32,000 bases of DNA, taken from positions 325,190 through 357,189 of the forward strand of contig NZ_JHUX01000004.1 in the NCBI RefSeq assembly GCF_000619845.1. Reading direction: 5' to 3'. Source of the DNA: Alkanindiges illinoisensis DSM 15370 (GTDB lineage: Bacteria > Pseudomonadota > Gammaproteobacteria > Pseudomonadales > Moraxellaceae). Below are positions 5,316 to 30,165 of the stretch, in pieces (position 1 is the stretch's first letter; each line of letters opens with the position of its first letter). The notes under the pieces were generated by a model. It was not told where the DNA came from and did no database searches. It saw only the letters and a program-made list of their open reading frames with translations. A program made the position numbers and the translations under genes.

Positions 5316-5335
5316 TTCCCACCACACTACATAGG

Positions 5336-7287: not shown

Positions 7288-7406
7288 GCAACGAGGTCGC
7301 CATATTACAAAAAGCTGGCCGCTTGAGCAAGCCCTCATTGATCAATATTCAGCCGCACTCAACATAAAACAATCATTAATGGCTAAATAAAGCACAACTT
7401 ATCGAT

Positions 7407-8161: not shown

Positions 8162-8246
8162 TGGTGCGGATGAGAGGACTTGAACCTCCACGTCTTGCGA
8201 CACTAATACCTGAAACTAGCGCGTCTACCAATTCCGCCACATCCGC
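8162..8246 (-). tRNA. tRNA-Leu (anticodon CAG)
   Basis: The reverse complement is GCGGATGTGGCGGAATTGGTAGACGCGCTAGTTTCAGGTATTAGTGTCGCAAGACGTGGAGGTTCAAGTCCTCTCATCCGCACCA. It is very close to the canonical gammaproteobacterial Leu-CAG. Confidence 0.9.
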
Positions 8247-16335: not shown

Positions 16336-17345
16336 TAGGTGTTTAGTCCCACACTTTGATGGTGCAAAATTCTCACATGAATGGAAGGAGGCACTATGGG
16401 ACAAGTTTTACACGGCAGCGCCACAACGACACAGGCAATACGTCGAGCAATACAAAATAGTCAAGAAAGCTTAAGAGTCTTGGCCAAGCATTACAGCATC
16501 AATCAAAAAACAGTTGCAAAGTGGAAGAAGCGCACATCAGTCGTTGATAGAGCAACAGGGCCGAAGAATCCTCGCTCAAGTGTGTTATCGCCTGAAGATG
16601 AGGCAGCAATCGTTGCTTTTCGAAAACATACTTTGCTGCTGCTGAACGATTGCCTTTATGCGCTACAGCCGAGTATTCCTCATCTACCCGTTCCTCGCTA
16701 CACCGCTGCTTGCAACGGCATGACATCTCACAGTTGCCTGACGTCCATGGCGATCTTCCTGTCAAGAAGCGTTTCAAGAGCTACCCCATCGGCTACTTTC
16801 ATATCGACATCGCAGAGGTACAAACAGCACAGGGCAAGCTTTATCTCTTCGTCGCCATTGATCGCACGTCGAAGTTCGCATTCACCGAACTGCATGGCAA
16901 GGCTGGCAAGATGGCAGCCGCGCAGTTCCTGCGCAATCTGGTTGAGGCTGTACCCTACAGCATTCATACAGTACTGACGGATAACGGTATCCAGTTCACG
17001 AACCGCACCTGTGACCGCTATGCCTTTGAACACATATTTGACCGGGTTTGTGCTGAATATGGCATTAAACATCGGCTCACCAGGGTTAAGTATCCATGGA
17101 CCAACGGACAGGTTGAGCGCATGAACCGAACAATTAAGGAAGCCACCCTCAAACGGTACCATTACGATGACCACACTCAGCTACGCACTCACCTGACTGA
17201 ATTTATTAGCGCATACAACTTTGGCCGCAGGCTCAAAACACTAAAAGGGCTGACACCTTATGAATTCATCTGCAAACAGTGGACAGATGAACCTGAACGC
17301 TTCAAGATTGATCCGATCCATCAAATGCCGGGACTAAACACCTAG
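16336..17345 (+). mobile_element. IS481-family insertion sequence (about 1.0 kb) with a frameshifted transposase
   Basis: The terminal inverted repeats are TAGGTGTTTAGTCCC (16336-16350) and GGGACTAAACACCTA (17330-17344). They extend imperfectly to about 27 bp (..TTTGATGG shared). The interior encodes an IS481-type DDE transposase. Confidence 0.8.
16396..17345 (+). pseudogene. IS481-family DDE transposase split over two frames (-1 shift near 16684-16688)
   Basis: Frame A reads MGQVLHGSATTTQAIRRAIQNSQESLRVLAKHYSINQKTVAKWKKR...CLYALQPSIPHL. Frame B continues (T)RSSLHRCLQRHDISQLP...YPIGYFHIDIAEV...VLTDNGIQF...WTNGQVERMNRTIK (D, D, E). The junction is cat-cta-ccc-gtt. An AGGAGG RBS lies at 16386-16391. 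Confidence 0.8.
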
Positions 17346-17684
17346 ATATATTCTATGCTATTGAAATATATTTTATTTTAATAAGGTTTTACAATTACTC
17401 TTTTCCATCTTTAATATATTGCGAATAGTGAATCTTGGGATCATATCTAAGCCATGAAAAATATTAGTTTATTTTCAAAGTAATTCGTATACTTAATTTT
17501 TCTATAATCTTTTAATCTAGAACTAGTAATTTTAAATATATTTTTCTATAGTAAAATAAATATAACACCTCATCTTACTATAAGATTTAAGGCATTATAA
17601 CGACTTGCTAATTTACAGTTTTTTTAGAAAAATATTGTTAAACTAAAAAGAATCAAAAGATTCCTGCTGAGCTAGTTATTTTAC

Positions 17685-18854
17685 ATGTTTAAAACAATGC
17701 AAAAAAATTCCGATCTTAAGAGAGTTTTGATCATAACACGTAACTTACCACCTCTTATAGGCGGGATGGAACGCCTCAATTGGCACATGGCAGATGAACT
17801 CTCCAAATATTACTGTGTTAAAGTAATTGCTCCTACAGGCTCGGCTAACCTAAAACCAAAGCACTTAGATATGATTGAAGTACCTTTAGTGCCATTATGG
17901 CTATTTCTTATTCTTTCGCTCTGGGAAGCCATCAAAATTACACTACAATGGAAACCCGATATCATTCTTGCGGGTAGCGGATTAACTGCCTTAGCAGCAA
18001 AATTAAGCAGTATATTCTATACAAAGAGTAAATCCGTTGCTTATTTACATGGACTTGACATTACAGCAGATCATAGATTATATCGGCTAATATGGCTTCC
18101 CATATTGAGACAACTTGATCATGTCATTACAAATAGCAGTCCAACTTCACAACTGGTAAGCAATTTAGGTATTCCAGACACCCGTGTTAGTATTATTTTT
18201 CCAGGCGTTAACTTACCAAGAACAATCCAAACGCAAGCTCAAATAGAACAATTTCTACATAAATATCAATTACAAAATAAGCATATACTATTATCCGTAG
18301 GTCGACTGACCACTCGGAAAGGTATTCATGAATTTATTCAGTATGCTTTGCCTGATATTGTCAAAGCAATGCCAAATATAGTTCTTGTTATTATTGGAGA
18401 ATCACCAAAAAATGCCCTATTGGCTGAAACCCAAAGTAAAGAAAGTATTGAAGCAACTGTTTCGCAATTAGGCCTTCAAGAACATGTTAAATTCTTGGGA
18501 AAAATTGACGATCAATCTCTCTCGTATGCATATGAAAGCAGTCATGTACATGTATTTCCTGTACGCCATATTCCCAATGATCCTGAAGGCTTTGGTATGG
18601 TAGCTATTGAGGCCGCTGCTCATGGTTTACCTACCGTTGCATTTGCAACAGGAGGCGTGGTAGACGCTATTTCTGATGGGAAATCAGGATATTTAGTTCG
18701 CTCTGAAGATTATTTATTATTAACTCAAGCTGTGATCAAGGCGCTTGCCTTGAATAATTTTTGGAAAAAGTCTTGCCAAACATTTGCAAAAAATTTTACA
18801 TGGGAAAATTTTGGAAATGATATTAAAACAAAGTTAAATAATATTTTAAATTAA
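17685..18854 (+). CDS. GT4-family (GT-B fold, Glycos_transf_1) glycosyltransferase
   Basis: 389 aa. The C-terminal half carries the retaining GT4 E-x7-E region (PNDPEGFGMVAIEAAAHGLPTVAFATGGVVDAISDGKSGYLV). Confidence 0.8.
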   Translation: MFKTMQKNSDLKRVLIITRNLPPLIGGMERLNWHMADELSKYYCVKVIAPTGSANLKPKHLDMIEVPLVPLWLFLILSLWEAIKITLQWKPDIILAGSGLTALAAKLSSIFYTKSKSVAYLHGLDITADHRLYRLIWLPILRQLDHVITNSSPTSQLVSNLGIPDTRVSIIFPGVNLPRTIQTQAQIEQFLHKYQLQNKHILLSVGRLTTRKGIHEFIQYALPDIVKAMPNIVLVIIGESPKNALLAETQSKESIEATVSQLGLQEHVKFLGKIDDQSLSYAYESSHVHVFPVRHIPNDPEGFGMVAIEAAAHGLPTVAFATGGVVDAISDGKSGYLVRSEDYLLLTQAVIKALALNNFWKKSCQTFAKNFTWENFGNDIKTKLNNILN

Positions 18855-18877: not shown

Positions 18878-19846
18878 ATGATTGAAGATGAAAAAATTGG
18901 GGTAGCAATTATAACTTATAATAGACCAGATGGCTTAGAAAAATTATTTAATTCTTTACCACATGAATTTATTGACTGCTTTATCATTATAAATGATGGA
19001 AAACCAATAGTTTCTGATATTATTCCAGCTCAATATATATCCAACAACATTCATAATTTAGGTGTTGGAAAATCAAAAAATAAAGCTCTAAAATACTTAA
19101 TGGATAATCAGATGGATCATTACTTCATTTTTGAAGATGATGTTCATATAATAAACCAAGAGATATTTCATGCTTATATTCAAGCAAGTAAAACAACAGG
19201 AATTCATCATTTTAACTCTGCTTTACACGTAGCTGAAAATAAGAAGAGCAATGGTCAACCAAATCCTCTTATAAAAATTATATACCCGAACGATGTCAAA
19301 ATTTCATTTTATTTTACTTGCTGTGGTGTATTTTCATATTATTCAAAAAAATGTCTTCTTACTGTTGGATTAATGGATGAACAGTTTTTTAATGCAGCTG
19401 AACACATAGATCATACTCTAAGATGCTCTCAAATGAATATGCATTCTGACTTTTGGTATTTTGCAGATATATCAGATTCTTATATATATTTGAAAGATAC
19501 ATATAATCAAGAAAACTATCAATCAGTAATATTAGTAAATAGTGACTCATGTCAAGTAATCAAAAATGCTAAAATACGTTTTAACTTAAAATATCAAATT
19601 AATTCTGTTAAAGAAATAGAAATAAATAGTCTCTTTAAATTTATAAATAATTTAAATACTCTTTATAACAAAGAGAGAAAACAGAACGAAGAATTCAACC
19701 TAATAAAAAAAAACCTGAAGGAATTAATTAGAAAATTTCCTATTATATTTGGTTTTAAACTAATTCATGACTTAAATAGAATAATAATAAAGTGCTTTCA
19801 TGGATTAAAAAAAACTCTATTAAATATTAAGAAAACTCCACCCTAA
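18878..19846 (+). CDS. GT-A fold (GT2-like) glycosyltransferase, very AT-rich
   Basis: The N-terminus IGVAIITYNRPDGLEKLFNSL and the acidic motif YFIFEDDVHI (DxD-like) resemble GT2. The K/N/I-rich C-terminal third has no recognisable similarity. Confidence 0.5.
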   Translation: MIEDEKIGVAIITYNRPDGLEKLFNSLPHEFIDCFIIINDGKPIVSDIIPAQYISNNIHNLGVGKSKNKALKYLMDNQMDHYFIFEDDVHIINQEIFHAYIQASKTTGIHHFNSALHVAENKKSNGQPNPLIKIIYPNDVKISFYFTCCGVFSYYSKKCLLTVGLMDEQFFNAAEHIDHTLRCSQMNMHSDFWYFADISDSYIYLKDTYNQENYQSVILVNSDSCQVIKNAKIRFNLKYQINSVKEIEINSLFKFINNLNTLYNKERKQNEEFNLIKKNLKELIRKFPIIFGFKLIHDLNRIIIKCFHGLKKTLLNIKKTPP

Positions 19847-20718
19847 ATACCATCTTTTATTCCCAAAACTAACGATTTGATTTGTCCTAATTTATCCTTT
19901 TTCACTAGACAGATGATTATAAATTGATAAATTAGACCTAAAAAAAACTCTTTTGCTGCAAATATTTTTGGCACATAAGGCTCTTTTAATAGATACAATG
20001 TATTTCTAATTCGAAAATATCTTCTGAAAGCGGAGTGTATTGTAATGCTTTTACCGAACACTTGAATATTATAATCACCTATTCTATGCTTCATTGTAGC
20101 TTTATTTGAAATATAGCAATGTAATCCCTTGGCTTTTGCTCTAAAACACCATTCGATATCTACATAATCAATAAAATAGTTTGCTTTCATAAAGCCGATA
20201 CGTCTTAATACATTAACTTCAACGTACATTCCAGATGAAATAATCAAGCTAGCTCTTCGCGGCTGTTTAATATTAGAAACGTCAATAGTCTTGCGAAAAC
20301 CATATTTGTTAACAGATGTTATCTTATAAAAAAAACTATATTCCTTATCAAACAACCTTGGGCCTATGGCAGCGATATTTGCATCAATATAATTTCTTAC
20401 ATAAGTATAATCGCTAGCAATAAAATTAATAAAATTACGACTAATCATGCTATCTTGATCAAAGAAAACAATGTAACGAGCTCCTGATTGAATCGCCCTT
20501 TTTATACCGACATTCTGAGCATAAGCAATTCCCTTATTACTTTCCAAGTAAATAGTTTCAGCTTTTTTTATGCTATCTAACATACAGGCATTTTTTGAAG
20601 CATTATCAACCAAAATTACCCTGACACTTTGCTCAGATAGCTGTGTAATTAATGTAGATAGATTCTCATGTTTTGGATTGAACGACACAATCACTGCAAA
20701 AATATTCATTTCAATCAT
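19843..20718 (-). CDS. GT2 glycosyltransferase (WbbL/rhamnosyltransferase-like subfamily)
   Basis: IFAVIVSFNPKHENL...VILVDNASKN...IVFFDQDS show the typical GT2 Rossmann start and DxD region. The start overlaps the upstream gene's stop by 4 bp. Confidence 0.75.
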   Translation of the reverse strand: MIEMNIFAVIVSFNPKHENLSTLITQLSEQSVRVILVDNASKNACMLDSIKKAETIYLESNKGIAYAQNVGIKRAIQSGARYIVFFDQDSMISRNFINFIASDYTYVRNYIDANIAAIGPRLFDKEYSFFYKITSVNKYGFRKTIDVSNIKQPRRASLIISSGMYVEVNVLRRIGFMKANYFIDYVDIEWCFRAKAKGLHCYISNKATMKHRIGDYNIQVFGKSITIHSAFRRYFRIRNTLYLLKEPYVPKIFAAKEFFLGLIYQFIIICLVKKDKLGQIKSLVLGIKDGI

Positions 20719-21617
20719 TTTGGATATTTAAAAGCTGCTCCAGCGCCCTTTAACATACTCCTAGCCTGTGTTTTTCTATCTATAGAAAAGATTAAATAAA
20801 CTATAAAAGTAAGTATCAACTTAATGATTGCCCAAAATTTCCATGTCAAAGGAACATATTTTCTAAAGAGCAAAAGAATAGTATTTCTAAATAAATAAAA
20901 ATGCCTAAATGCAGAACGTATGGGCCAAACTTTCCAACCAAATAGCCAGAATTTTAAACTGCTTTCACCCATTTGATGATAAAATACAGCGGTTGGAATC
21001 CCATATAAATGATAACCAGCATTTAGTACTCTAAAAGACCATTCTGTATCAATATGATCAATAAAAAAGTCCTGATCTAGCGCACCCAATTGTGTAAATA
21101 AATTAGCACGCATGAATGTCCCACTACCATTTATATTTGTACACTTAACTGGCTGTATTGAGCCAGATTCTGGATAAATTCTACTCCATAATCCATTACG
21201 CATTTGATGAAAGCCATGCTGCTTCTGAGTTTTAAAATCTATTAATTTTGGACCAACACAACCAACTTTACTACCATTCTCCTCCAATTGATTGAAGTAT
21301 TTATAAAGCTGATTGATTGCATCAGTTGCTGGCACGCTATCCTGATCCAATAAAAGAATAAACTCTAAAGTTTTGTGCATCTTTATTGCATGATTGACGC
21401 CAATATTTAAAGCCGTTGCTAATCCAAGATTCTCATTATTATTAACTAAATAAATATTATTTCTTTTTTGGCTAATTTTGCTCAAGCGCGTAATATCTTG
21501 AGCATTAGATCCATTATCTACAATAATCCAGATAATTTCTCCTAAACTATGCATTTGTTGAGTTAATAATTCAAATGATGGATTATAGGTTACTGTAATC
21601 GCAGCAATATTATTCAT
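20715..21617 (-). CDS. GT2 glycosyltransferase (WbbL/rhamnosyltransferase-like subfamily), paralogous in architecture to the next gene
   Basis: IAAITVTYNPSFELL...IVDNGSN...LLLDQDS...IDHIDTEWSFR. It has 4-bp overlaps with both neighbours. Confidence 0.75.
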   Translation of the reverse strand: MNNIAAITVTYNPSFELLTQQMHSLGEIIWIIVDNGSNAQDITRLSKISQKRNNIYLVNNNENLGLATALNIGVNHAIKMHKTLEFILLLDQDSVPATDAINQLYKYFNQLEENGSKVGCVGPKLIDFKTQKQHGFHQMRNGLWSRIYPESGSIQPVKCTNINGSGTFMRANLFTQLGALDQDFFIDHIDTEWSFRVLNAGYHLYGIPTAVFYHQMGESSLKFWLFGWKVWPIRSAFRHFYLFRNTILLLFRKYVPLTWKFWAIIKLILTFIVYLIFSIDRKTQARSMLKGAGAAFKYPK

Positions 21618-23056
21618 AATACACGCCCATAGTCATCTTTCAACCGAACAATATCATCCTCACCTAAATAAGCACCTGACTGAATTTCTATCAGCTCCAA
21701 AGGAATACTTCCCGGATTTTCTAGACTATGAATTGTACCAATTGGAATATAGGTTGACTCATTCTCAGAAATAAAGTATTTCTCATCTCCTCTAGTTACT
21801 TTAGCTGTACCCTTTACTACGATCCAATGCTCTGCGCGATGATGATGTAACTGCAAAGATAGTTTTGACTTTGGATTAACAGTAATTCGCTTCACTTGAT
21901 AACGTTCACCTACATCAATTGAGTCATATTTGCCCCAAGGCCTTATGACTTCTCGGTGGATAGATAGCTCTGTCCTTTGATATCGGGTTAAGTCTTCTAC
22001 AATCTTCTTCATTAATTGTGATTCTGTTTTATTTGCTACCAGAATAGCATCTTTGGTTTCAACAACAATCAAATCATCTACGCCAAGCACTGTAACTAAC
22101 CGACTTGAAGCATGCACATAGTTATTTTGACCTTGCTCTATTAATACATCACCAAAAACCACATTCTGTTGCTCATCTTTGATACTGGACTCCCATAATG
22201 ACTCCCAAGATCCAAGATCATTCCAACCGGCCTCTAGGCGAACTACGGCACCAATTGTCGTGTGCTCCATCACAGCATAATCAATTGAATCCTCTGGACA
22301 ATCTTTAAAGGCTTCAGGATTTATACGTATAAAATCTAAATCTGCTTGGCACTGCATAAATGATTGCTTGCAGCTTGCCAGAATTTCTGGTTGATATTTT
22401 TTCACCTCATTGAGAAAGCTATTTGCCCCAAATAGAAACATACCGCTGTTCCATAAATACGACTGGCTCTCCAGATAATCTTTTGACGTTGCTAAGTCTG
22501 GCTTTTCCACAAAATGGGCTAACTGATAAGCCTTTCTATCCTCTAACATCTGACCCAATTTAATATAGCCATAGCCTGTATGCGCGCAATATGGTGTTAC
22601 TCCAAACACAACAAGCATACCCTGCTGCACAACAGTCAATGCAGATAAAATACTGCGATGAAATTGAGGGATATCTACAATATGATGATCTGATGCCAAA
22701 ACTAATAAGGCAGGATTTTTCTCTAAATATAATGCTTGTGCCTGCAATGCCGCTAATGTAATGGCTGGTGCAGTATTTTTACCTACAGGCTCTAGCAGAA
22801 TAGAAGCTTTTTCTATACCAATCTGTCGCAATTGCTCTGCAACAATAAATCGATGCTCCTCATTACAAATTATAATGGGTGAAGTCATCGGAATGTCCAG
22901 ATTGTCTAACCGTTTTAATGTTAATTGTAACATGGACCATTCTGGATCAATTAGCCGTAGAAACTGTTTGGGGTAGGATTTTCTAGACAATGGCCATAAG
23001 CGTGTACCGGAACCACCGGCCAATATAACGGGTGTAAGTATCCCTTTTTCATCCAT
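21614..23056 (-). CDS. manC: Bifunctional mannose-1-phosphate guanylyltransferase / mannose-6-phosphate isomerase (type II PMI-GMP)
   Basis: 480 aa. It has the N-terminal nucleotidyltransferase motif (PVILAGGSGTRLWPLSR.SYPKQF) and a C-terminal cupin PMI domain (RPWGKYDSIDVGERYQVKRITVNPKSKLSLQLHHHRAEHWIVVKGTA). Confidence 0.9.
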   Translation of the reverse strand: MDEKGILTPVILAGGSGTRLWPLSRKSYPKQFLRLIDPEWSMLQLTLKRLDNLDIPMTSPIIICNEEHRFIVAEQLRQIGIEKASILLEPVGKNTAPAITLAALQAQALYLEKNPALLVLASDHHIVDIPQFHRSILSALTVVQQGMLVVFGVTPYCAHTGYGYIKLGQMLEDRKAYQLAHFVEKPDLATSKDYLESQSYLWNSGMFLFGANSFLNEVKKYQPEILASCKQSFMQCQADLDFIRINPEAFKDCPEDSIDYAVMEHTTIGAVVRLEAGWNDLGSWESLWESSIKDEQQNVVFGDVLIEQGQNNYVHASSRLVTVLGVDDLIVVETKDAILVANKTESQLMKKIVEDLTRYQRTELSIHREVIRPWGKYDSIDVGERYQVKRITVNPKSKLSLQLHHHRAEHWIVVKGTAKVTRGDEKYFISENESTYIPIGTIHSLENPGSIPLELIEIQSGAYLGEDDIVRLKDDYGRVL

Positions 23057-23062
23057 GAAAAA

Positions 23063-24769
23063 TTATCCTAATGACAATATTTTATTACACCCGGCCACAG
23101 CAGACTCTCTATGTGCAATAATAATTAATGTCTTTTTACCATTTAACTCATTAATAGCTGCATTTACTGCCGCTTCCGTTTCTGCATCTAGTGCGCTGGT
23201 GGCTTCATCCATAAGCAATACAGGGGGATCACGGTATAGTGCACGTGCTATGCCAATCCGCTGACGTTGTCCCCCAGAAAGTAATACACCTCGTTCACCA
23301 ACAGTGGTGTAATAACCCTGATGTAATTCACTAATTATAAAATCATGTATTTGTGCAGCTTTAGCCGTTCTTACTACGGCATCCATATCAATATTTTCTT
23401 GGGGCACCCCAAAAGCAATATTTGCTGCTACACTGGCATCTGCTAGATAAATATGTTGTGGCACATATCCAATAGATTGCTGCCAACCAGTAACATTATC
23501 AGCAGTGATTGGAACATCATCAATTAATAATTGTCCCAGTTGTGGTGTTAATAAACCTAACAGAATATCCATTAATGTGCTTTTGCCAGAACCGCTTTTA
23601 CCCACTATTCCTAAGCTGCTATTGACCGGAATAGTTAAATTAACATGTTGTAGTATCTCTTTATGTTGACTACCAGGATAAGCATAGCTTACATCCATTA
23701 ACTGAATATCACGCTGTGGGATTAACGGTGCCATCTGATTAATCTTAGCCAACAAGGGTAATGAAAGATCACGATGAATATTTTGCAGTGTTGCCCCTGC
23801 AAAACGCATTCGAGCAAAAGCACGATAAATAATTTGGGCAGCTGGTAATATGCGATATGCTGCAAATCCGTATAAACCTAATACTGGCAATATATGTGCA
23901 ATATCATTACTTTGATGAATTAAAAGAAGTGCCAGTAAAATTAACCCAGTATATCCTGTTGCTTCAACAAGAAATAAAGGCACTTGACTTAATGTCTCAT
24001 TAGCTGCTAAATGCCTTGCAAAAATTCGAGAAGAACGATTAAACCGCTCCATATAAGCTGAAGCAGAATGAGTAATTTTTACGTCTTTAATGCCGCTTAG
24101 TGCTTCTTGGCAAGCTATAAACCGCTCTTTATTCGCTGTATGTAATTCTAAACCAATTTTGGTTAAATGCTTTCTTACTAGCCAATAAATTAGACCATAC
24201 AAGGAACCCACTATAAGCATTAAACTAAATGCCATAACCGGATTATATATAAACAGAAGTGCAAGCATTGCCAGAACAATAAATCCTTGACTCAGCATTT
24301 GCAAAAGCGGCTGCAACACATTGCCAAGCAAGTGGTCTACTTCCGATAAAATATTTTGGTTTAATTCTGCACTATTTCTCTGCAAGAAAAAAATATATGG
24401 CTGCTGAAGGTATACAGACAGAAGACGAAAACTAAAATAATAACGTTGTAAATTGGCAAAACGATTTAAGGTATGGATCGTAATGGATTTAAAGAGCGAT
24501 GAAAAAAGTACTATAAAGATAGAAAATATACCCAAAACCAAGATAAAGCTTTGTTTATTATTGAAAGAAAAGAAATTATAAATATAAGCCAGTATGGCAT
24601 TATCATGAATAACATCTGGCCTAGCAAGCACTGCAAGAAATGGCATAATAGAAACAACGCCAGCTGTTTCCATACCTGCCATGACTAATACCAAGATAAA
24701 TACAAGCAGTGCTTTTCTTTTCTCCATTGGTGTGAGTATGTGCCATAACTTTTTAAGTGATTCAAGCAT
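23063..24769 (-). CDS. Fused TMD-NBD ABC exporter (MsbA/PglK-like half transporter)
   Basis: 568 aa. A six-TM type I exporter domain is followed by an NBD with Walker A (GKSGSGKST), signature (LSGGQRQR) and Walker B (VLLMDEATSALD). Confidence 0.85.
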   Translation of the reverse strand: MLESLKKLWHILTPMEKRKALLVFILVLVMAGMETAGVVSIMPFLAVLARPDVIHDNAILAYIYNFFSFNNKQSFILVLGIFSIFIVLFSSLFKSITIHTLNRFANLQRYYFSFRLLSVYLQQPYIFFLQRNSAELNQNILSEVDHLLGNVLQPLLQMLSQGFIVLAMLALLFIYNPVMAFSLMLIVGSLYGLIYWLVRKHLTKIGLELHTANKERFIACQEALSGIKDVKITHSASAYMERFNRSSRIFARHLAANETLSQVPLFLVEATGYTGLILLALLLIHQSNDIAHILPVLGLYGFAAYRILPAAQIIYRAFARMRFAGATLQNIHRDLSLPLLAKINQMAPLIPQRDIQLMDVSYAYPGSQHKEILQHVNLTIPVNSSLGIVGKSGSGKSTLMDILLGLLTPQLGQLLIDDVPITADNVTGWQQSIGYVPQHIYLADASVAANIAFGVPQENIDMDAVVRTAKAAQIHDFIISELHQGYYTTVGERGVLLSGGQRQRIGIARALYRDPPVLLMDEATSALDAETEAAVNAAINELNGKKTLIIIAHRESAVAGCNKILSLG

Positions 24770-24778
24770 TGCAGCCCC

Positions 24779-25627
24779 TTACTCACCCTTATACATTAGT
24801 GCAGTTACTTGCTCTGAAATCAGTCCCATTAGAAAAATCATTACACTTCCTGTATAAAGCAATGCACTCATATTGGTAAAACGGTTGAACTCATAAAGAG
24901 TATAACCATACCAACTAGATGCCATCAAAAACAATATAGTGGCAATTGGCAAGAACATTTTAAGTGGAGAAAATAATGTTGCAATTTTAAAAATAATAAG
25001 AAAAAAACGAATGCTATCTTTTACTGGATGGATATGGCTCTTACCAATGCGTTTAGCTGCATGAATCGGCACATAAGCAACCGAATAACCCGCTCTAAAA
25101 AATGCCATTGTACTTGTTGTAGGATAGGAAAAACCATTCGGCAGTAAATACAGAAACTCTCTAAATTTATTAGCATTTACTGCTCTGAAACCAGAAGTTA
25201 AATCCTCTATAGGATGCTCGGTCATATAGGTTGCAAGCCTATTATACAATTGATTGGCTATACTCCGACCTATACTGGCTTGTGAACCTCTTTGCCGCGC
25301 TCCAACTACAAGGTCATATCCTTGGTTCATTTTCTCTAGTAAAAGAACAATATCTGCTGGATCATGTTGTCCATCGGCGTCCATAAATATAATGACCTCA
25401 CCAGTAGCTACTCTTGCTCCTGTTTTAATTGCTGCGCCATTGCCCTTAGGATAAGGATGAGACACCACATGTGCACCCGCTTGCTCAGCAAGCTGTAAAG
25501 TTTGGTCTCTAGAACCATCATTAATTACAATTATTTCTGCATCTGCATATATTTTTTTAATTTGTCTCACAGTTTGGCCAATTGCACCAGCTTCATTTTT
25601 CGCAGGTAAAACTATACTTAACTTCAT
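24779..25627 (-). CDS. Membrane-anchored GT2 polyprenol-phosphate glycosyltransferase (DPM1/GtrB/ArnC-like)
   Basis: 282 aa. The catalytic domain reads MKLSIVLPAKNEAGAI...IIVINDGSRDQT...IIFMDADGQHDP. Two C-terminal TM helices follow (FFLIIFKIATLFSPLKMFLPIATILFLMA, LLYTGSVMIFLMGLISEQV). Confidence 0.8.
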   Translation of the reverse strand: MKLSIVLPAKNEAGAIGQTVRQIKKIYADAEIIVINDGSRDQTLQLAEQAGAHVVSHPYPKGNGAAIKTGARVATGEVIIFMDADGQHDPADIVLLLEKMNQGYDLVVGARQRGSQASIGRSIANQLYNRLATYMTEHPIEDLTSGFRAVNANKFREFLYLLPNGFSYPTTSTMAFFRAGYSVAYVPIHAAKRIGKSHIHPVKDSIRFFLIIFKIATLFSPLKMFLPIATILFLMASSWYGYTLYEFNRFTNMSALLYTGSVMIFLMGLISEQVTALMYKGE

Positions 25628-25633: not shown

Positions 25634-27559
25634 TTACTTATCCTTATGGTAAACATGCATTTTATCAGCCTCCATATCTGCTTGTATATTCTTCCTTAAA
25701 TCCTCTGCAATACGCTTGTACATTACCTCATCCTTTAACTGCTTTTGATAAATAAGCTCAATTTTTGTTAAAAGCTGTAAAGCTAATTTATAATAACCTT
25801 TATTTCCTAGATCAGCGACCATAGCTAATGCAGCACTAACATCTCGATATTGAACGGCTGCTCGCAAATAATTCTGATATGCTTTGTGTGGTAGCTCTAA
25901 TGCAGCAAATAATTGTGCTTGCAGATAATTCGATAATGCATAAAAATTAGGGTAATCTCTGTAAGATTTATTATATTTTATAAGATTAGTGAGAAGCTCA
26001 GTCATTTCTTGAGCATATAATCTAGTAAGTTTTTGATCCTTAATGATTTTATCAACCAAGCCACGTAATCCCCAAATAGCCGCACCATCAGCATTTTGTT
26101 TTAATATCTGGTGTTGAAGCCTTAAAAAATCTTGTTTACTAACCTTTCCGATATCTATTTTTTGTTTTAACAGTTGAATAAGTAAACTTGAATCAGGATG
26201 GCAAGCTATTGCTTGCTCTAACACTTGATTAGCTTCTTGAGATCGACCATGTTGCATCAATATTTCGGCTAATTTACTCTGAGCACGTACTGACTCAGGA
26301 TTATTCTGTGCCCAATAAACCTGCAGTTTTGTTGTATCTGACCATAAAATCACACGTTGCCATGTCATCCATGCTAATATTATTAATATTAGACAACTAA
26401 TGAAAATAACAGAACTCGATTTAGTTCTTTCAGATAAATTGTATAAACCTGCAGCTATAGGTAAAAATAAAAATATTGCTGCTACATAATTTCGGTGCTC
26501 AAAATATAACTCTAAACCAATGACACTTGATTCAATTAAGTGGGCTGCAAAAAAGAATAAAATTGCTAAACAAATTAGTGGATATTTTTTTCTAATAGCA
26601 AATGCAAAACCTAATAAAAAAATTATAAAGATAATCGATATTAATGTAGTAACTGGGTTTAACCACCCCTTAGAAATATAGTAACCATCTTGAAATAAAC
26701 CATAACCTTCTATACGTGGAATGAATAGCTGATATAAATAACTACAAATGATTCTTGCTTCGCTCCATAAACGCTCAGCCTGATTAAATGAACGATATGG
26801 CCAAGGATTTTCTGAAAAATCAATATAATGAAATAATAATGCTGCGATTACCGTTGATGGCATCCACAAACATATTGCACGCCAATACCAAATAGGTTTA
26901 TTAACCTTAGTAGGATTACAGAATTCTATAATTAAAATTAAAAGTGGTAATAAAGCACCATTTTCCTTGCTATAAGTTGCTAATATACTACTAATACTGA
27001 TGGATAAAGTCATTATAATATAAGCATGTAAGGGTCGTCTAGTTAATAAAGCTCTTCCTCTTAAATATCCAATCATACCTAACAGGCTAAATAATAACGG
27101 TAACTGTGCCATCCGTTGTATAACATATAACGTTGTAGAAACAAAGAAAGGATGTAACAACCAAAAGCCACATGATAAAAGTGCAATCCATGTTGCCTTT
27201 TTTTCTATGTATCCATAACTTAATAAAATTAAACGTATTGTCCAGTAGATTAAAATGCCACATGATAAATGAATAGCTAAATTGACTAATTTAAAAGGAT
27301 AAGCGCTTATTGGCCATGAATAAGCCTGAGGAATAAATGTGGCTAACGCAATGGGACGTCCTGTAGGTCCAGCAAAACCACTAGTTATAAATTGTTGGAT
27401 ATCTTTCCATTGTCCAGAATCCCTATAGTGAGCTAGACCCGCGAGATTAGATTGATCATCAAATAAAAACCCACCTTGAAGGCCTGGCCAATAAACTAAT
27501 CCAGTAAGTAAAATTAATATAAATAAACCAGTTGTTGGAATAATGCGAGTCATCAACAT
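25634..27559 (-). CDS. GT-C fold polytopic membrane glycosyltransferase with a C-terminal TPR domain (TfpW / TMTC / DUF1736-like); candidate pilin glycosyltransferase
   Basis: 641 aa. About 11-13 hydrophobic segments span residues 1-400. An FLFDD motif (D34-D35, codons at 27455-27460) lies in the first predicted periplasmic loop. LELYFEHRNY is present near the last TM segments. Residues from about 410 to 630 are helical TPR-like repeats. It is the first gene downstream of pilA. Confidence 0.65.
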   Translation of the reverse strand: MLMTRIIPTTGLFILILLTGLVYWPGLQGGFLFDDQSNLAGLAHYRDSGQWKDIQQFITSGFAGPTGRPIALATFIPQAYSWPISAYPFKLVNLAIHLSCGILIYWTIRLILLSYGYIEKKATWIALLSCGFWLLHPFFVSTTLYVIQRMAQLPLLFSLLGMIGYLRGRALLTRRPLHAYIIMTLSISISSILATYSKENGALLPLLILIIEFCNPTKVNKPIWYWRAICLWMPSTVIAALLFHYIDFSENPWPYRSFNQAERLWSEARIICSYLYQLFIPRIEGYGLFQDGYYISKGWLNPVTTLISIIFIIFLLGFAFAIRKKYPLICLAILFFFAAHLIESSVIGLELYFEHRNYVAAIFLFLPIAAGLYNLSERTKSSSVIFISCLILIILAWMTWQRVILWSDTTKLQVYWAQNNPESVRAQSKLAEILMQHGRSQEANQVLEQAIACHPDSSLLIQLLKQKIDIGKVSKQDFLRLQHQILKQNADGAAIWGLRGLVDKIIKDQKLTRLYAQEMTELLTNLIKYNKSYRDYPNFYALSNYLQAQLFAALELPHKAYQNYLRAAVQYRDVSAALAMVADLGNKGYYKLALQLLTKIELIYQKQLKDEVMYKRIAEDLRKNIQADMEADKMHVYHKDK

Positions 27560-27628
27560 ATATTTATAATCTTAAAATTTATAGAACAATCACTTTAAGT
27601 ACATTTTTTTCTTAAGATGATCTTAAAT

Positions 27629-27657
27629 AAGAAGAGGCTCCTATAGAGCCTCTTCTT
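27629..27657 (-). terminator. Hairpin (probable partial terminator/attenuator) between pilA and the glycosylation operon
   Basis: AAGAAGAGGCTCctataGAGCCTCTTCTT is a 12-bp perfect stem. The trailing minus-strand sequence ATTTAAG is only weakly U-rich, so read-through is plausible. Confidence 0.55.
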
Positions 27658-27684
27658 ATTTTATAGGTCGTTAATACTGATTAA

Positions 27685-28092
27685 TTACAGTACGCCTTTA
27701 GGTAAATATTTAGCAATACCACCATTACTAGTAACTTTTATTGAACCATTTCTATCTGTCTTAGCAACTACTTGTTTACTTTCAATTTGTTTAGCAACTC
27801 CAGAAGATGCATAGGTAATAGTAACAGTACATTCACCTGTAGCACTTGGAGCACCAGCTGTTACTTTTACACTTGCAGCATATTTACCGTGTGCACTGCT
27901 ACTACCACAATCTCCAGTTTGCAAGCTGTCGCCGATATCAGCTTTTAGGCCATCAGCTAATGCAAAACCTTCAGCAGCTTGTGATCGTGCAATATAATCT
28001 TGGTAAGCAGGAATCGCAAAAGCAGCCAGAATACCAATGATCGCTACAACGATCATCAATTCAATTAACGTAAAACCCTTTTGTGCGTTCAT
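27685..28092 (-). CDS. pilA: Type IVa major pilin
   Basis: [38 protein letters not shown] has the class III signal peptide, the prepilin peptidase site and Glu5. The start was set at ATG 28090-28092, preceded by AGGAGA. The track ORF start at 28176 adds 28 spurious residues. 135 aa precursor. Confidence 0.9.
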
Positions 28093-28170
28093 ATAAATTC
28101 TCCTAGGAATACAAAAATAGTAGTGTTGGCTTGTTGTTTTGACCAACGCTCTAACACACACGCTGTTATA

Positions 28171-28187
28171 TTGCATTTGTCATGCCA
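28171..28187 (-). promoter_or_regulatory. Sigma-54 (-24/-12) promoter of pilA
   Basis: The minus strand reads TGGCATGACAAATGCAA, against the consensus TGGCACG-N4-TTGCW with correct GG/GC spacing. It lies about 80 nt upstream of the pilA ATG. Confidence 0.7.
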
Positions 28188-28361: not shown

Positions 28362-28922
28362 CTATAAAAATATAGCCTGATTGCTTAATTCATTACCTAA
28401 GTCTTTTATTTTGTTAGCATAAAATTGGTTGAGCACTTCGCCAATTTGCTCAATACCGCTAATTACCCCGGCACAATACTGTTTTTGCTTGAGCTGCGCA
28501 GTAATATTACTGCAAATTGTGTCCCAATTCTCGCTTGTAACAAAATGATTTATGCCGCGATCAGCCACAATTTCAACTTTGCGTTCACATAAGTTGATGT
28601 ATAGCAGCACACCGCTGTTATAGGCAGTGTCCCATACCCCATATTCAGCAAACAGCTGTTTTGCACGGGTTCTGGTATTAGTGCGCAATGCCATATCCAG
28701 TGGCAGATGTCCTTCAATAATCACCTGGATCTCACCTGCATGATTTTGTTCAGCCTGCGCGACGGCATTGCTAATCTGCTTTTGTACATCCGCATTAAAG
28801 CATCGACGCGTCTGCCACGGTAGATAAATAAAATTTCTAAACCAGCGGGGAAAATCCAGTTGTTTACAATCATCTGTTAGTTTTTGATGACTACTTATCA
28901 GGTCAGTATCATTATTTACCAT
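28362..28922 (-). CDS. TPM-domain (TLP18.3/Psb32/MOLO-1, DUF477) protein
   Basis: 186 aa, third gene of the lemA operon. The motif AGEIQVIIEGHLP...NSGVLLYINLCERKVEIVADRGI resembles the TPM phosphatase-like fold. The start overlaps the upstream stop. Confidence 0.6.
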   Translation of the reverse strand: MVNNDTDLISSHQKLTDDCKQLDFPRWFRNFIYLPWQTRRCFNADVQKQISNAVAQAEQNHAGEIQVIIEGHLPLDMALRTNTRTRAKQLFAEYGVWDTAYNSGVLLYINLCERKVEIVADRGINHFVTSENWDTICSNITAQLKQKQYCAGVISGIEQIGEVLNQFYANKIKDLGNELSNQAIFL

Positions 28923-30010
28923 GATCCAGAAGCTCCGCCGCCGCCAAATGAGCCACCGCCACCGCGATAGCCTCCGCCACCAAAACCGCCACCACCGCGT
29001 CCTCCACCAAACCCACCACCGTTTAGTACACCGGATAGAAGTAGCTGTGCAATTGAACTAATTAATAAAAAGAATACACCCCCACCTAGCATCAAACTGC
29101 TAATGAGACCAAGTCCACTGCTTAAGCCCCAGCCGATTCCTACTGCACCGGCAATACTGGCGCTTAGGGATTTTCCTATAAACAGTGCCGCAAACATACC
29201 GCCCAAGCAAAGAATGATCAGCATGGTCAAACTGCTTTGGGTACGGGCCTGTTGCTGGGCCTGAGCCGCCTGCTGTTGTTTGAGCTGATCCGCACTGTTT
29301 TTAGCAATTTCTGGATCAAGTTTTAAGATTTGGGCAATCTGGTTTAAGCCAGCAGTCAATCCAGCCGCATAATTGCCTTGTTTAAACTGGGGGGTAATTT
29401 GCTCTTCAATAATGCGCTTAAGTACAACATCGGGTAATACGCCTTCTAGTCCATAACCCGTTAAAATCTGGATACGGTGATCATTGACTGCAACCATGAT
29501 GAGCAAGCCATTATCTGTTTTTTCGTTACCCAGTTTCCATTGTTCAAAAGCACGGTTAGCGTAATCAAAAATGGCTTCCTGCCCGGTACTGGGCAAGATA
29601 ATAAGTCCGGTTTGTGCGCGTCCTGTCTGATAAATTTCTAGAATTTTTTGGCTAAGTTGCTGCTGTTGCTCACTGGTTAATAAGTTGGCCTGATCAATCA
29701 CCGGGCTGTTTAAATCTGGCAATGTGGCTTGAATGAGGTTGGGGTCAGCCTGTGCAGGTCTCTCTGCCGACGTTGAGGCGTCTATAGTGCTTTGATTATT
29801 GATGGGCGCACTGATGGGCGGAATAGCACTGTTCAGTACTGGCCCACCCGCCTGCTTGGCCTGATTTAGAACGATTGCCGCTTCTGCCACCTGGTCTGCT
29901 TGCGTCGCTGATTCTGCATGGGTTTGGACAGCAGTTAACAGCAATACCATCATTATAAAAATGATTAAATATTGATGGCATTTTTCCTGTAAAACTGCAA
30001 GTAGCGGCAT
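28916..30010 (-). CDS. YgcG-like TPM-domain membrane protein with a glycine-rich C-terminal tail
   Basis: It has a signal/anchor, a TPM domain (VIDQANLLTSEQQQQLSQKILEIYQTGRAQTGLIILPS...DNGLLIMVAVNDHRIQILTGYGLEG), TM segments, and a GGGFGGGRGGGGFGGGGYRGGGGSFGGGGASGSW tail. The exact start is uncertain (30010 or an internal Met). Confidence 0.65.
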   Translation of the reverse strand: MPLLAVLQEKCHQYLIIFIMMVLLLTAVQTHAESATQADQVAEAAIVLNQAKQAGGPVLNSAIPPISAPINNQSTIDASTSAERPAQADPNLIQATLPDLNSPVIDQANLLTSEQQQQLSQKILEIYQTGRAQTGLIILPSTGQEAIFDYANRAFEQWKLGNEKTDNGLLIMVAVNDHRIQILTGYGLEGVLPDVVLKRIIEEQITPQFKQGNYAAGLTAGLNQIAQILKLDPEIAKNSADQLKQQQAAQAQQQARTQSSLTMLIILCLGGMFAALFIGKSLSASIAGAVGIGWGLSSGLGLISSLMLGGGVFFLLISSIAQLLLSGVLNGGGFGGGRGGGGFGGGGYRGGGGSFGGGGASGSW

Positions 30011-30165
30011 GGCATTGTCTTCTGCTTTGGCCTTTTAACTGCGGATAATTTTTAGTTATCCAGCGTTACGGCATTAAAATCAGGTTTCTCACAAGCAAGT
30101 TATTTTCACAATATGGTTTTAAAAACATGATCCTAAGAACCTAATTTTACAACCATGAGCATTAA

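Follow-up and report, generated by a model that had tools for sequence, protein, structure and literature searches.

A putative pilin O-glycosylation island with a conserved polyprenol-phosphate sugar synthase and a PglK-like ABC transporter in Alkanindiges illinoisensis

We describe an island of a widespread, previously undescribed kind that lies beside the gene for the major pilus subunit, found in a 32,000-nt stretch of DNA (the window) from Alkanindiges illinoisensis. Comparison of 80 related loci points to a conserved core of pilA, a TfpW-like GT-C/TPR gene and a GT2 gene. We give even chances to a scheme, built on sequence comparison, in which the GT2 primes undecaprenyl monophosphate (Und-P), cytoplasmic glycosyltransferases (GTs) extend the lipid-linked sugar, a PglK-like ABC transporter flips the product and the GT-C enzyme transfers the glycan to pilin. 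A single-mannose pathway is probably too simple.

Island setting and conserved core

Between about 17 and 29 kb the GC content of the window drops from ~46% to 25-39%, and the distal border of this low-GC island is marked by an IS element remnant with an rve integrase (16381-17345, plus strand; PF00665 and PF13683). Three minus-strand genes are intact in the ORF listing, at exactly the coordinates given by a previous sequence-only reading: ManC (21614-23056, 480 aa), a fused ABC half-transporter (23063-24769, 568 aa) and a GT2 (24779-25627, 282 aa), with intergenic gaps of 6 and 9 nt. All three are strong HMM matches and not chance ORFs. pilA and the GT-C/TPR gene lie upstream of them in the same operon, and the assignment of the three genes to a pilin O-glycosylation island spanning ~17.7-28.1 kb appears to us about evenly balanced. 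Pfam searches with every island ORF and a motif scan returned no GtrA-, SMR-, Wzx-, Wzy-, Wzm/Wzt- or phosphoglycosyltransferase (PGT)-like gene in the island, as that reading had claimed, and the intergenic gaps are too small to hold an additional small flippase or PGT gene.

The presumed glycan acceptor is a PilA-like major type IV pilin (27685-28092, minus strand; PF00114 Pilin and PF07963 N_methyl), 135 aa from [13 protein letters not shown] by the public gene call; the mechanical ORF (27685-28176) begins too far upstream. Of 56 long related loci, 47 have a pilin gene directly 5' of the GT-C gene. A 17-bp perfect hairpin (27625-27661, minus strand) begins 24 nt past the pilin stop codon and has a minimum free energy of -39.1 kcal/mol (z -6.0; 0 of 200 shuffles were equally stable) and no clear U-tract. 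It is probably an attenuator or stabiliser that separates pilA from the glycosylation genes.

The presumed pilin transferase (25634-27559, minus strand) is a 641-aa GT-C-fold membrane glycosyltransferase with a C-terminal TPR domain detected by Pfam, an architecture resembling TfpW. Residues F33-D34-D35 are invariant among 24 homologues, and the family has the invariant motif Y-x6-P-x-[IVF]-E-G-x-G-L-[FY]-Q-D. Our AlphaFold models are of moderate confidence (pLDDT 73 and pTM 0.79 for the TM domain; loops 251-297 and 341-356 are below pLDDT 50). Top Foldseek matches of the membrane-domain model are Pmt4 (PDB ID 9i5k, E 2e-4, TMq 0.55), ArnT (5ezm) and STT3 (8agb). A GT-C/TPR enzyme adjoining pilA is thereby supported, its best fold match by predicted structure being a protein O-mannosyltransferase. 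To our knowledge, PMT/ArnT-type GT-Cs are known only as monosaccharide transferases, a point against our scheme.

The GT2 (24779-25627, minus strand) is the proposed initiating enzyme. It matches PF00535 (E 9e-31), ends in two C-terminal hydrophobic helices and has ArnC (9hwj), GtrB (5ekp) and Dol-P-Man synthase (DPMS; 5mlz) as closest solved structures. Among NCBIfam models, AglJ (128 bits, far below the cut-off of 325 bits) and PpgS (90 bits) rank highest, and all models score under their cut-offs. Together, HMM scores, PDB relatives and C-terminal helices uphold its earlier placement in the polyprenol-phosphate sugar synthase class (GtrB/ArnC/DPM1). Our set of 80 gamma- and betaproteobacterial loci, each anchored on the GT-C, contains the GT2 67 times (median identity 72%), with a GT2 start at most 400 nt from the end of the GT-C gene in 52. 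In 66 of 66 loci its conservation exceeds that of the GT-C (median identity 72% versus 43%), as expected of an enzyme making an invariant first lipid-linked sugar.

The exporter and the lipid carrier

The ABC gene (23063-24769, minus strand) encodes fused ABC_membrane and ABC_tran domains and would provide the lipid-linked-glycan flippase. Its assignment as a 568-aa half-transporter of the MsbA/PglK type stands, with PglK the best NCBIfam model (352 bits, the equivalog cut-off being 1000 bits) ahead of MsbA (242 bits); for the transmembrane domain (TMD) alone, the E-values are 9e-22 for PglK and only 4e-4 for MsbA. Walker A, signature and Walker B residues are invariant. Three PglK arginines are replaced (R86, R260 and R309 correspond to S90, L265 and I313), and only R302 is retained (R306). 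Arg-260 contacts pyrophosphate in PglK (PMC5395944). This position is Leu in 23 of 23 island ABCs and in L082, a P-R to P-L change flanked by conserved Pro and Glu, whereas 73 of 80 other PglK-like relatives have Arg or Lys.

We analyzed exporter content in the 50 loci in which the GT2 is present with 8 kb or more of sequence downstream. A PglK-like ABC is found in 19, a MOP/Wzx protein in 14, Wzm/Wzt in one or two and no recognisable exporter in 15. This last group, which speaks against our scheme, includes compact islands from Pseudomonas (L021, L023, L025) that carry three extra GTs. Two exporter types never occur together (0/50; for the absence of ABC/MOP overlap P is 2.8e-4, with no correction for phylogeny). 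A natural swap is seen between two A. lwoffii loci, which share five sugar genes and a GT2 with 90% identity, one encoding the ABC and the other a MOP flippase. That the ABC alternates with, and never joins, MOP or Wzm/Wzt supports its proposed role as the flippase of the cluster. Und-P-monosaccharide systems, too, use MOP-family flippases (GacK; the MATE protein ORF14, PMC11127046), and an oligosaccharide cargo is thus not proven by the swap of exporters alone.

The nature of the lipid carrier separates our scheme from one that we regard as unlikely, in which an unlinked housekeeping PGT starts the glycan as Und-PP-sugar for elongation by the island GTs, and the ABC acts as flippase as in Campylobacter or like Wzk of H. 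pylori, the glycan being attached by the GT-C or by a PglL-type enzyme from elsewhere and the GT2 making Und-P-sugar only for a periplasmic side-branch. Related PglK-like ABCs (31-46% identity) do occur in multi-GT glycan clusters, some of which bear PGT motifs, and STT3-type GT-Cs, which use PP-linked oligosaccharides, are among the structural matches of our GT-C. The initiating PGT is often encoded elsewhere for ABC-dependent O antigens, with WecA often unlinked (PMC11127046). The same regular expression that finds PGTs in four ABC-anchored metagenome clusters detects none in any related island, which is weak evidence because these four are the only positives among ~34 long ABC-anchored control clusters. 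Other observations speak against this Und-PP scheme: the island ABC clade has lost the basic residue at the Arg-260 position, the island contains no Wzy_C-type O-oligosaccharyltransferase, and most loci encode a single GT-C, for which a dual role as Und-PP-glycan oligosaccharyltransferase and Und-P-sugar transferase is implausible. The GT2, the most conserved gene of the island, would moreover be reduced to an accessory. Two loci (L015 and L019) encode a complete classical module of GtrA, a GtrB-like enzyme and a membrane protein besides GT2 and ABC, which argues that GT2 and ABC are not merely a Gtr-type side-branch module.

Additional glycosyltransferases and sugar supply

Four further cytoplasmic GTs are encoded in the island. 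Two are GT2s of the TIGR01556 'rhamnosyltransferase' subfamily and are proposed to act in elongation: a 300-aa protein (20715-21617, minus strand; 214 bits, cut-off 200.55) with a C-terminal hydrophobic segment and homologues at 42-52% identity in Pseudomonas and Tepidiphilus loci, and a 291-aa protein (19843-20718, minus strand; 246.5 bits, above the cut-off). Both are translationally coupled to ManC, the gene for the 300-aa protein overlapping by 4 nt with ManC on one side and with the 291-aa GT2 gene on the other. The third is an orphan of 322 aa (18878-19846, plus strand), a candidate divergent GT2-like (GT-A) glycosyltransferase that matches a GT2 N-domain HMM built from related loci with the orphan left out (24.7 bits, collinear over residues 1-186); it has no Pfam, NCBIfam or PDB match and no homologue among the 80 loci. 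The fourth is a GT4 of 389 aa (17685-18854, plus strand; PF00534 and PF13439), a distal conserved gene that has counterparts at 45% identity or more in 18 of 50 loci (Moraxellaceae, Pseudomonas, Comamonadaceae), typically convergent at the far end. Outside the core, island content is hypervariable and resembles that of O-antigen loci, with Glf, Gmd, DegT, methyltransferases, an AT3 acyltransferase, ATP-grasp, CDP-ribitol and TagF-like enzymes and PEP mutase in related islands. At least one extra cytoplasmic GT is present in 34 of 35 exporter-bearing loci (median 3; uncorrected for shared ancestry), and an exporter is absent from four of the five loci that lack extra GTs.

ManC (21614-23056, minus strand) is a bifunctional mannose-1-phosphate guanylyltransferase/mannose-6-phosphate isomerase with NTP_transferase, beta-helix and cupin PMI domains, and scores 701.7 bits against the curated NCBIfam equivalog TIGR01479 (cut-off 372.95). 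It is present in only 4 of the 50 loci (L002, L005, L006, L012), across which the GT2 keeps 54-81% identity; GT2s 77-81% identical to that of the window occur with or without ManC. In L002 and L005, ManC is accompanied by Gmd and a reductase-like gene, members of the variable set of sugar genes. ManC therefore represents variable sugar supply and not, as the sequence-only reading had it, part of the donor module, and mannose as the lipid-linked sugar, though conceivable, is left unsupported because ManC lies outside the conserved module.

These results bear on the simple three-component model, in which ManC supplies GDP-mannose, the GT2 makes Und-P-mannose, the ABC flips it and pilin is O-mannosylated by the GT-C/TPR enzyme, perhaps in the processive manner suggested for TfpW and arabinofuranose, while the other GTs serve something else. 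We consider this route quite improbable. It would suit the class of the GT2, the Pmt4 match of the GT-C and the contiguity of the ManC, ABC and GT2 genes, which nearly holds in the closest relatives (L005, L006). Minimal loci with GT-C and GT2 and without extra GTs (L034, L060, L063, L074) make a monosaccharide mode plausible for the family, and the TfpW donor is a polyprenyl-P monosaccharide (bioRxiv 10.1101/2020.04.19.049825). But the minimal loci that suit it have no exporters, which instead track the extra GTs; four cytoplasmic GTs, two of them in the ManC operon, are passed over and left without a role; and in L015 and L019 monosaccharide flipping has a GtrA-containing module of its own. 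An oligosaccharide assembled on the lipid ahead of flipping would fit the gene content better.

Very improbable is a surface polysaccharide or LOS locus unrelated to pilin, with pilA adjacency reflecting an integration hot spot and the ABC exporting polymer: low GC, the bordering IS element, the O-antigen-like variability and the Wzm/Wzt pair, typical of polymer export, in one or two related loci would agree with it, but the order pilA, GT-C, GT2 is conserved over several gamma- and betaproteobacterial families, the GT-C has a TPR protein-interaction domain and resembles the pilin glycosyltransferase TfpW in architecture, and the window shows no Wzy, WaaL-like ligase, Wza/Wzc or Kps export genes.

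Proposed mechanism and comparison with known systems

In the scheme that we favor, the GT2 would move one sugar to Und-P at the cytoplasmic face, its nucleotide-sugar donor probably being of the housekeeping kind and not necessarily GDP-mannose. The GT4, the two TIGR01556 GT2s and the orphan, as soluble or membrane-associated enzymes, would lengthen Und-P-sugar into a short oligosaccharide, with ManC providing GDP-mannose for one elongation step. The PglK-like ABC would then flip the Und-P-linked oligosaccharide into the periplasm, where the GT-C/TPR enzyme would hand it to Ser/Thr of pilin.

By analogy, this logic matches the lactococcal PSP pathway, with a protein acceptor and an ABC flippase instead. 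Experiments have established a GlcNAc-P-C55 primer, cytoplasmic elongation, a Wzx flippase and GT-C transfer in that pathway, a bacterial precedent for Und-P-primed oligosaccharides (PMC10821137). PSP (WpsA/WpsB, WpsC-F, WpsG, WpsJ; PMC10821137) and the island share a GT2-made sugar-P-C55, strain-variable cytoplasmic GTs, flipping, GT-C transfer, the absence of a PGT and hypervariable glycan genes around a conserved initiator, flippase and GT-C. PSP differs in its Gram-positive host, its rhamnan acceptor, its Wzx-type flippase and its polymerisation step (WpsH/WpsI), and WpsA has no TM helices and requires WpsB, whereas the island GT2 has two of its own.

TfpW of P. aeruginosa group IV (Pa5196/PA7) is a pilA-adjacent GT-C/TPR enzyme that glycosylates pilin from a polyprenyl-monophosphate donor, and homologues are reported to follow pilA in several genera, Acinetobacter among them (bioRxiv 10.1101/2020.04.19.049825). 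Compared by description, TfpW and the island GT-C are both multi-pass membrane proteins encoded directly after pilA; they share a first periplasmic loop bearing a DD motif, an ArnT-like GT-C fold, a C-terminal TPR and a polyprenyl-monophosphate-linked donor (here proposed), and the TfpW YX6PFX7P motif is only partly matched. The TfpW donor is polyprenyl-P-D-arabinofuranose, made via UbiA-like/DprE1/DprE2 enzymes and flipped by a GtrA-like protein, whereas island loci have a GT2 synthase, ABC or MOP exporters and several cytoplasmic GTs. Three-component systems (GtrA/GtrB/GtrV, ArnC/ArnEF/ArnT, GacI/GacK/GacL and pentofuranose systems; PMC11127046) likewise combine a polyprenol-P-sugar synthase (GT2 or other) with a GT-C and are resembled by the minimal family members L034 and L060; the window lacks a GtrA-, SMR- or MATE-type flippase but has an ABC and four extra cytoplasmic GTs.

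PglK from Campylobacter jejuni shares the half-transporter architecture, its TMD aligning end to end with that of the island ABC including the TM1-TM2 region, and the island ABC gene too lies inside a putative protein-glycosylation cluster. That cluster contains no PglC/PglB-type genes, the proposed cargo is monophosphate-linked and only one of four cavity arginines is kept. The H. pylori protein Wzk, an ABC flippase of lipid-linked oligosaccharides, has the same half-transporter architecture. In archaeal Dol-P N-glycosylation (Haloferax AglJ; Methanococcus AglK), a DPM1-like GT2 primes polyprenol monophosphate, followed by elongation and en bloc GT-C transfer. This system belongs to another domain of life and forms N-linkages via the STT3-type AglB, but among NCBIfam models AglJ scores best for the island GT2, if well under its cut-off.

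Layout of the proposed pilin glycosylation island

GC content in the window falls from ∼46% to 25–39% across ∼17.4–28.2 kb. A pilin gene lies here (27685–28092, minus strand; PF00114/PF07963), followed on the same strand by genes for a 641-aa GT-C/TPR protein (GT-C, 25634–27559), a 282-aa polyprenol-phosphate sugar synthase (GT2, 24779–25627), a 568-aa ABC half-transporter (ABC, 23063–24769), ManC (21614–23056) and two TIGR01556-type GT2s (20715–21617 and 19843–20718). Beyond the pilin this minus-strand array is tightly packed, with successive gaps of 6, 9 and 6 nt and then two 4-nt overlaps. A GT4 (17685–18854) and a 322-aa orphan (18878–19846) are encoded on the plus strand, convergent with the array. 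Searches of Pfam, NCBIfam and the PDB with the orphan return nothing, and none of 80 related loci encodes a homologue; its sole match, to a home-made HMM of the GT2 N-domain built from those loci, gives it a weak likeness to GT2 enzymes, and it may be a novel glycosyltransferase. GC content is down to 25.5% at 19000–20000, where the two convergent genes end, and the remnant of an IS element, an rve integrase in two overlapping ORFs, lies at the distal island border (16381–17345). The remnant and the GC drop are consistent with horizontal acquisition or with cassette exchange of the variable glycosyltransferase part. A promoter/terminator consensus scan performed no better than on shuffled sequences.

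The sequence-only reading had joined ManC, GT2 and ABC into a donor module for undecaprenyl monophosphate (Und-P) mannose. The three genes are complete, and the evidence for what they encode is strong: ManC scores 701.7 bits against TIGR01479 (equivalog cut-off 372.95) over residues 7–478 of 480 and combines an N-terminal nucleotidyltransferase (PF00483, PF22640) with a C-terminal cupin isomerase (PF01050/PF07883). That reading was also right about what is missing. The island contains no GtrA, SMR or MOP (Wzx-family) flippase gene, and its intergenic gaps are too short for one; domain and motif scans of the island likewise return no phosphoglycosyltransferase (PGT), Wzx, Wzy or Wzm/Wzt gene.

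The pilin is 135 aa long according to its mature-type leader and the public gene call; we rejected the longer mechanical ORF (27685–28176, minus strand), whose first codon lies 28 codons ahead of the true prepilin start. A perfect 17-bp hairpin (27625–27661, minus strand; z −6.0 versus shuffles) begins 24 nt past the pilin stop and lacks an obvious U-tract. As described for pilin accessory genes (PMC11841053), it may limit how much read-through reaches the glycosylation genes from pilA, which is highly expressed.

Upstream of pilA, LemA and two TPM-domain genes (28362–30807, minus strand) are syntenic with most Acinetobacter loci of our comparison (L002, L004, L007–L010, L015–L020, L024), which places the island at a chromosomal site that is conserved in Moraxellaceae. 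Elsewhere in the window, a LysR regulator is divergent from a BTP-family (AceI-like) chlorhexidine efflux gene (1818–3243), a pair that presumably resembles the Acinetobacter AceR/AceI system. A second low-GC stretch (3424–8246, 36–40%) encodes a beta-propeller protein and a MORN-repeat protein, adjoined by a tRNA-Arg/Ser/Leu cluster (7004–8246), and may be another acquired segment.

A conserved GT-C and GT2 among variable genes

A scan with a GT-C alignment, taking one genome per species and at most 10 kb of flank on each side, yielded 80 related loci (designated L0xx) from Acinetobacter, Moraxella, Pseudomonas, Comamonas, Delftia, Dechloromonas, Accumulibacter, Cellvibrio, methanotrophs and others. 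Of 8,000 scored candidates, at least 2,752 are GT-C homologues with E ≤ 0.001, and one NCBI protein of Alkanindiges illinoisensis (Moraxellaceae) is 100% identical to GT-C of the window. As in the window, where the gap is 125 nt, GT-C directly follows pilA in most of the long related loci. PDB sequence searches with the protein and its family profile returned TPR proteins only, and neither Pfam nor NCBIfam has a model for the membrane domain (faint DUF6056 matches occur in only 3 of 24 members). We modeled residues 1–410 alone, since a full-length Foldseek search was dominated by TPR matches. The AlphaFold model, built with 24 homologues, is of moderate confidence (pLDDT 73, pTM 0.79); its top Foldseek matches are Pmt4 (9i5k, E 2e-4, TMq 0.55), ArnT, STT3, Pmt1-Pmt2, AglB and AftA, which points to a GT-C fold.

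An F33-D34-D35 motif in the first loop is invariant, and TPR repeats form the C-terminus. Compared with the published description of TfpW, the pilin arabinosyltransferase of Pseudomonas aeruginosa, the protein shares four traits: the position after pilA, the DD loop, a predicted ArnT-like fold and a C-terminal TPR part (bioRxiv 10.1101/2020.04.19.049825). The TfpW motif YX6PFX7P is matched by half: in the GT-C family Y274-x6-P281 is invariant and is followed by R/Q-I-E-G-x-G-L-F-Q-D, not F-x7-P, and the strict motif occurs in none of the related loci. The TfpW preprint places tfpW homologues beside pilA in several genera, and the only neighbouring genes that it describes are those for D-arabinofuranose biosynthesis (bioRxiv 10.1101/2020.04.19.049825). 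No such donor genes (UbiA-like, DprE1, DprE2, GtrA-like) are present in the window; a GT2 synthase is linked instead. Several loci have GT-C/TPR paralogues in tandem behind a single pilin gene (L005 3197–7056, L006 430–4328, L058, L059, L063, L069, L074, L078), with an FAD oxidoreductase (PF01266) between them in L063 and L074. These may be two transferases differing in sites or donors.

The GT2 catalytic domain is of GT-A type (PF00535, E 9e-31) with its DXD motif in IIFMDADGQHD, and two hydrophobic segments at the C-terminus (208–237 and 252–271) correspond to the GtrB-type helix pair. This pair and the nearest solved relatives in a PDB search (ArnC 9hwj, 60.8 bits; GtrB 5ekp, over residues 2–274; DPMS 5mlz) bear out its earlier placement in the DPM1/GtrB/ArnC class. 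GT2 stays below every curated NCBIfam cut-off (AglJ 128/325, PpgS 90/370, PgfS 79/500, ArnC 67/529 bits), and no sugar can therefore be assigned to it. Counted by tblastn, a GT2 homologue is found in 67 of the 80 loci and starts at most 400 nt from the end of GT-C in 52. It is the most conserved island gene, with a median identity to the window protein of 72% versus 43% for GT-C, and is the more similar of the two in 66/66 loci. Among the 13 loci without GT2, six have less than 3 kb of downstream sequence and seven at least 6.5 kb. Four of these seven (L048, L050, L054, L057) have pilB/pilC directly after GT-C; we discarded them as candidate arabinofuranose-pathway loci, as GT-C is accompanied there by pilB/pilC/pilD and housekeeping genes and not by DprE1/DprE2/UbiA.

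Two Acinetobacter loci (L015 11926–14540 in A. chengduensis and L019 11926–14516 in a MAG) carry an extra module between GT-C and the conserved GT2 and ABC. It encodes a 430–441-aa membrane protein without Pfam match, a GtrB-like GT2 (24–27% identical to the window GT2) and GtrA (PF04138), and its probable contribution is a periplasmic side-branch on the pilin glycan. Since a complete classical Gtr module thus stands alongside GT2 and ABC, this pair is not simply a Gtr-type side-branch device.

Downstream of GT2 the loci are hypervariable in the manner of O-antigen loci. They contain GT2 and GT4 glycosyltransferases, UDP-galactopyranose mutase, GDP-mannose dehydratase (Gmd), DegT aminotransferases and methyltransferases, and also an AT3-SGNH acyltransferase, an ATP-grasp enzyme, CDP-ribitol synthase with TagF-like transferases, and PEP mutase. 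A CDP-ribitol synthase fusion (IspD+SDR) with TagF-like glycerol/ribitol-phosphotransferases is encoded in L028 (14933–19158), a similar set is indicated by BLAST clusters c35/c36 in A. towneri L017 (14486–18000), and L022 has a PEP mutase-cytidylyltransferase fusion (16882–18192). These enzymes hint at teichoic-acid-like or phosphonate-decorated pilin glycans. Fifty loci have GT2 and at least 8 kb of downstream sequence; 18 of them carry a homologue of the window GT4 (at least 45% identity) at the far, convergent end.

Only 4 of these 50 loci (L002, L005, L006, L012) have a linked ManC, and GT2 is equally conserved without it (in Moraxellaceae loci it is 77–81% identical to that of the window whether ManC is there or not), which speaks against ManC as a fixed part of a donor module. 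In L002 and L005 it occurs together with Gmd and a reductase-like gene. A true Gmd is present without linked ManC in L030 and L064, so GDP-mannose may come from elsewhere in the genome; we take the absence of ManC from an island to mean only that ManC is variable, because it is not proof of missing GDP-mannose. ManC is a member of a variable sugar-supply set.

Exporters of the island

ABC is a fused TMD-NBD exporter (PF00664 and PF00005) whose Walker A, signature and Walker B/H-loop residues do not vary among 14 members of its family. Its transmembrane domain alone matches PglK (5c73, E 9e-22, 81 bits, residues 5–335 on 2–331) far better than MsbA (E 4e-4), which narrows the earlier PglK/MsbA assignment to the PglK side; its score against the PglK equivalog NF050066 (351.8 bits) lies under the cut-off of 1000.

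Among the 50 loci, 19 encode a PglK-like ABC (52–60% identical to that of the window), 14 a MOP/Wzx-family flippase (PF01943/PF13440) and one or two a Wzm/Wzt pair; 15 have no recognized exporter. Divergent MOP flippases were called from Pfam-annotated blastp clusters, the tblastn thresholds being too strict for them. No locus carries two exporter types (without correction for phylogeny, an ABC/MOP overlap of zero has a probability of 2.8e-4). A natural exporter swap in A. lwoffii shows this most clearly: L011 and L014 share GT2 (90% identical) and five sugar-modification genes in the same order (72–86%), and ABC stands right after GT2 in L011 and is absent there in L014, which has a MOP flippase instead. 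This exclusivity and the swap lend good comparative support to the proposal of the sequence-only reading that ABC would act as the flippase of the island.

Three compact Pseudomonas islands between pilA and nadC (L021, L023, L025) combine GT-C and the conserved GT2 and GT4 with two more GT2s and a UDP-sugar dehydrogenase; they contain no recognizable flippase of any kind. Flipping must here presumably fall to a housekeeping flippase or to the GT-C itself, the latter as proposed for TfpW.

Metagenome contigs, scanned independently with the ABC family as anchor, hold relatives with 31–46% identity in multi-glycosyltransferase glycan clusters without pilin, GT-C or conserved GT2, some of these clusters with PGT motifs; the wider clade therefore appears to export lipid-linked glycans in general. 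In PglK, four arginines of the cavity (R86, R260, R302 and R309) are functionally relevant and are thought to touch the substrate pyrophosphate (PMC5395944). Their equivalents in the window protein are S90, L265, R306 and I313, and all 23 island ABCs invariantly have S, L, R and I/N/V at these positions. Among 80 metagenomic relatives, the R260 position is Arg/Lys in 73 and the R302 position is basic in all. The local alignment is unambiguous, and the change from Q-x-P-R-x-x-x-E to Q-x-P-L-x-x-x-E is confined to the pilin-island clade and its single close metagenomic member (L082). K94 and R316, near these positions, are family-invariant. The change of R260 to leucine might fit a monophosphate head-group, which we offer as a suggestion, not proof.

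Glycan assembly and comparison with known systems

Four further cytoplasmic glycosyltransferases are encoded in the same operons of the window island. They would have no role in a monosaccharide three-component model, which argues for an oligosaccharide cargo assembled in the cytoplasm rather than Und-P-mannose. At least one extra glycosyltransferase is present in 34 of the 35 exporter-bearing loci (median 3), and the exporter is absent in four of the five loci without an extra glycosyltransferase; these counts, too, are uncorrected for phylogeny.

Such an oligosaccharide could be built on undecaprenyl pyrophosphate (Und-PP) primed in trans by a PGT encoded elsewhere. A regular expression for the PGT motif finds none in any related island; it does detect PGTs in ABC-anchored control clusters, but in only 4 of ∼34, and PGTs are frequently unlinked (PMC11127046), so that their absence is weak evidence. 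Priming in trans would leave a merely accessory role for GT2, the most conserved gene, and would not explain the R260-to-leucine change, and we regard it as unlikely. The monosaccharide route of the sequence-only reading, in which GDP-mannose from ManC would lead through Und-P-mannose and ABC flipping to O-mannosylation of pilin by GT-C, is less probable still. The Pmt4-like fold of GT-C and the existence of minimal loci with GT-C and GT2 agree with it, but the extra glycosyltransferases and the rarity of ManC are then unexplained. Of the likeness to three-component systems the synthase and the GT-C transferase stand, whereas the small flippase is lacking and the four extra enzymes contradict a scheme without elongation. 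A polysaccharide unrelated to pilin is very improbable given the conserved adjacency to pilA.

The proposed scheme has a direct precedent in bacteria. In lactococcal PSP biosynthesis, WpsA/WpsB form GlcNAc-P-C55, strain-variable cytoplasmic glycosyltransferases elongate it, a Wzx-type flippase exports the product and a GT-C is the proposed transferase (PMC10821137). We consider, with roughly even confidence, that the island is a pilin-directed, Gram-negative counterpart of this pathway; each step in the island is inferred from sequence. GT2 would prime Und-P; GT4, the TIGR01556 GT2s and the orphan glycosyltransferase would elongate the primer, one step being fed by ManC; the PglK-like ABC would flip the product; and the TfpW-like GT-C/TPR protein would attach the glycan to pilin. 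The established chemistry of GT2-type and GT-C-type enzymes is inverting. The reducing sugar is thus predicted to be beta-linked to Und-P and alpha-linked to Ser/Thr. Several points weigh against this explanation: 15 of the 50 loci have no recognizable exporter, including the compact Pseudomonas islands with three extra glycosyltransferases; to our knowledge, PMT/ArnT-type enzymes transfer monosaccharides only; and MOP flippases also serve Und-P-monosaccharides.

If it is correct, many Acinetobacter, Moraxella, Pseudomonas, Comamonas and relatives decorate their pili by a different route, with a conserved core, variable glycosyltransferase sets and interchangeable exporters. This would bear on escape from pilus-specific phages and immune recognition, on competition over the undecaprenyl phosphate pool and on glycoengineering with a new transferase class that uses a monophosphate donor. 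The R260-to-leucine change offers a concrete way to test how PglK-type flippases recognize the lipid head-group. Full-text literature searches returned no description of islands combining pilA, GT-C, GT2 and an exporter.

The characterized Gram-negative protein O-oligosaccharyltransferases that we know of (PglL, TfpO and TfpM) are all of Wzy_C type and use Und-PP-linked glycans, and for TfpW, a GT-C pilin enzyme, we know of arabinofuranose only. We tentatively propose, somewhat short of even confidence, a third kind of bacterial protein O-oligosaccharyltransferase system, widespread beside pilA in Gamma- and Betaproteobacteria: a PMT/ArnT-like GT-C/TPR protein would move pre-assembled, hypervariable oligosaccharides from Und-P to pilin, GT2 would replace a PGT as initiator, and a dedicated PglK-clade ABC without the pyrophosphate-binding arginine (R260 to L) would fit the monophosphate head-group. 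The lactococcal and pilin clusters share a GT2 sugar-P-C55 synthase, variable cytoplasmic glycosyltransferases, a flippase and a GT-C in one cluster without a PGT, and differ in the flippase, which is Wzx-type in lactococci and an ABC transporter in the window island. New would be the combination of a TfpW-type pilin GT-C, Und-P-primed oligosaccharide assembly and a PglK-type flippase, each of a kind already known.
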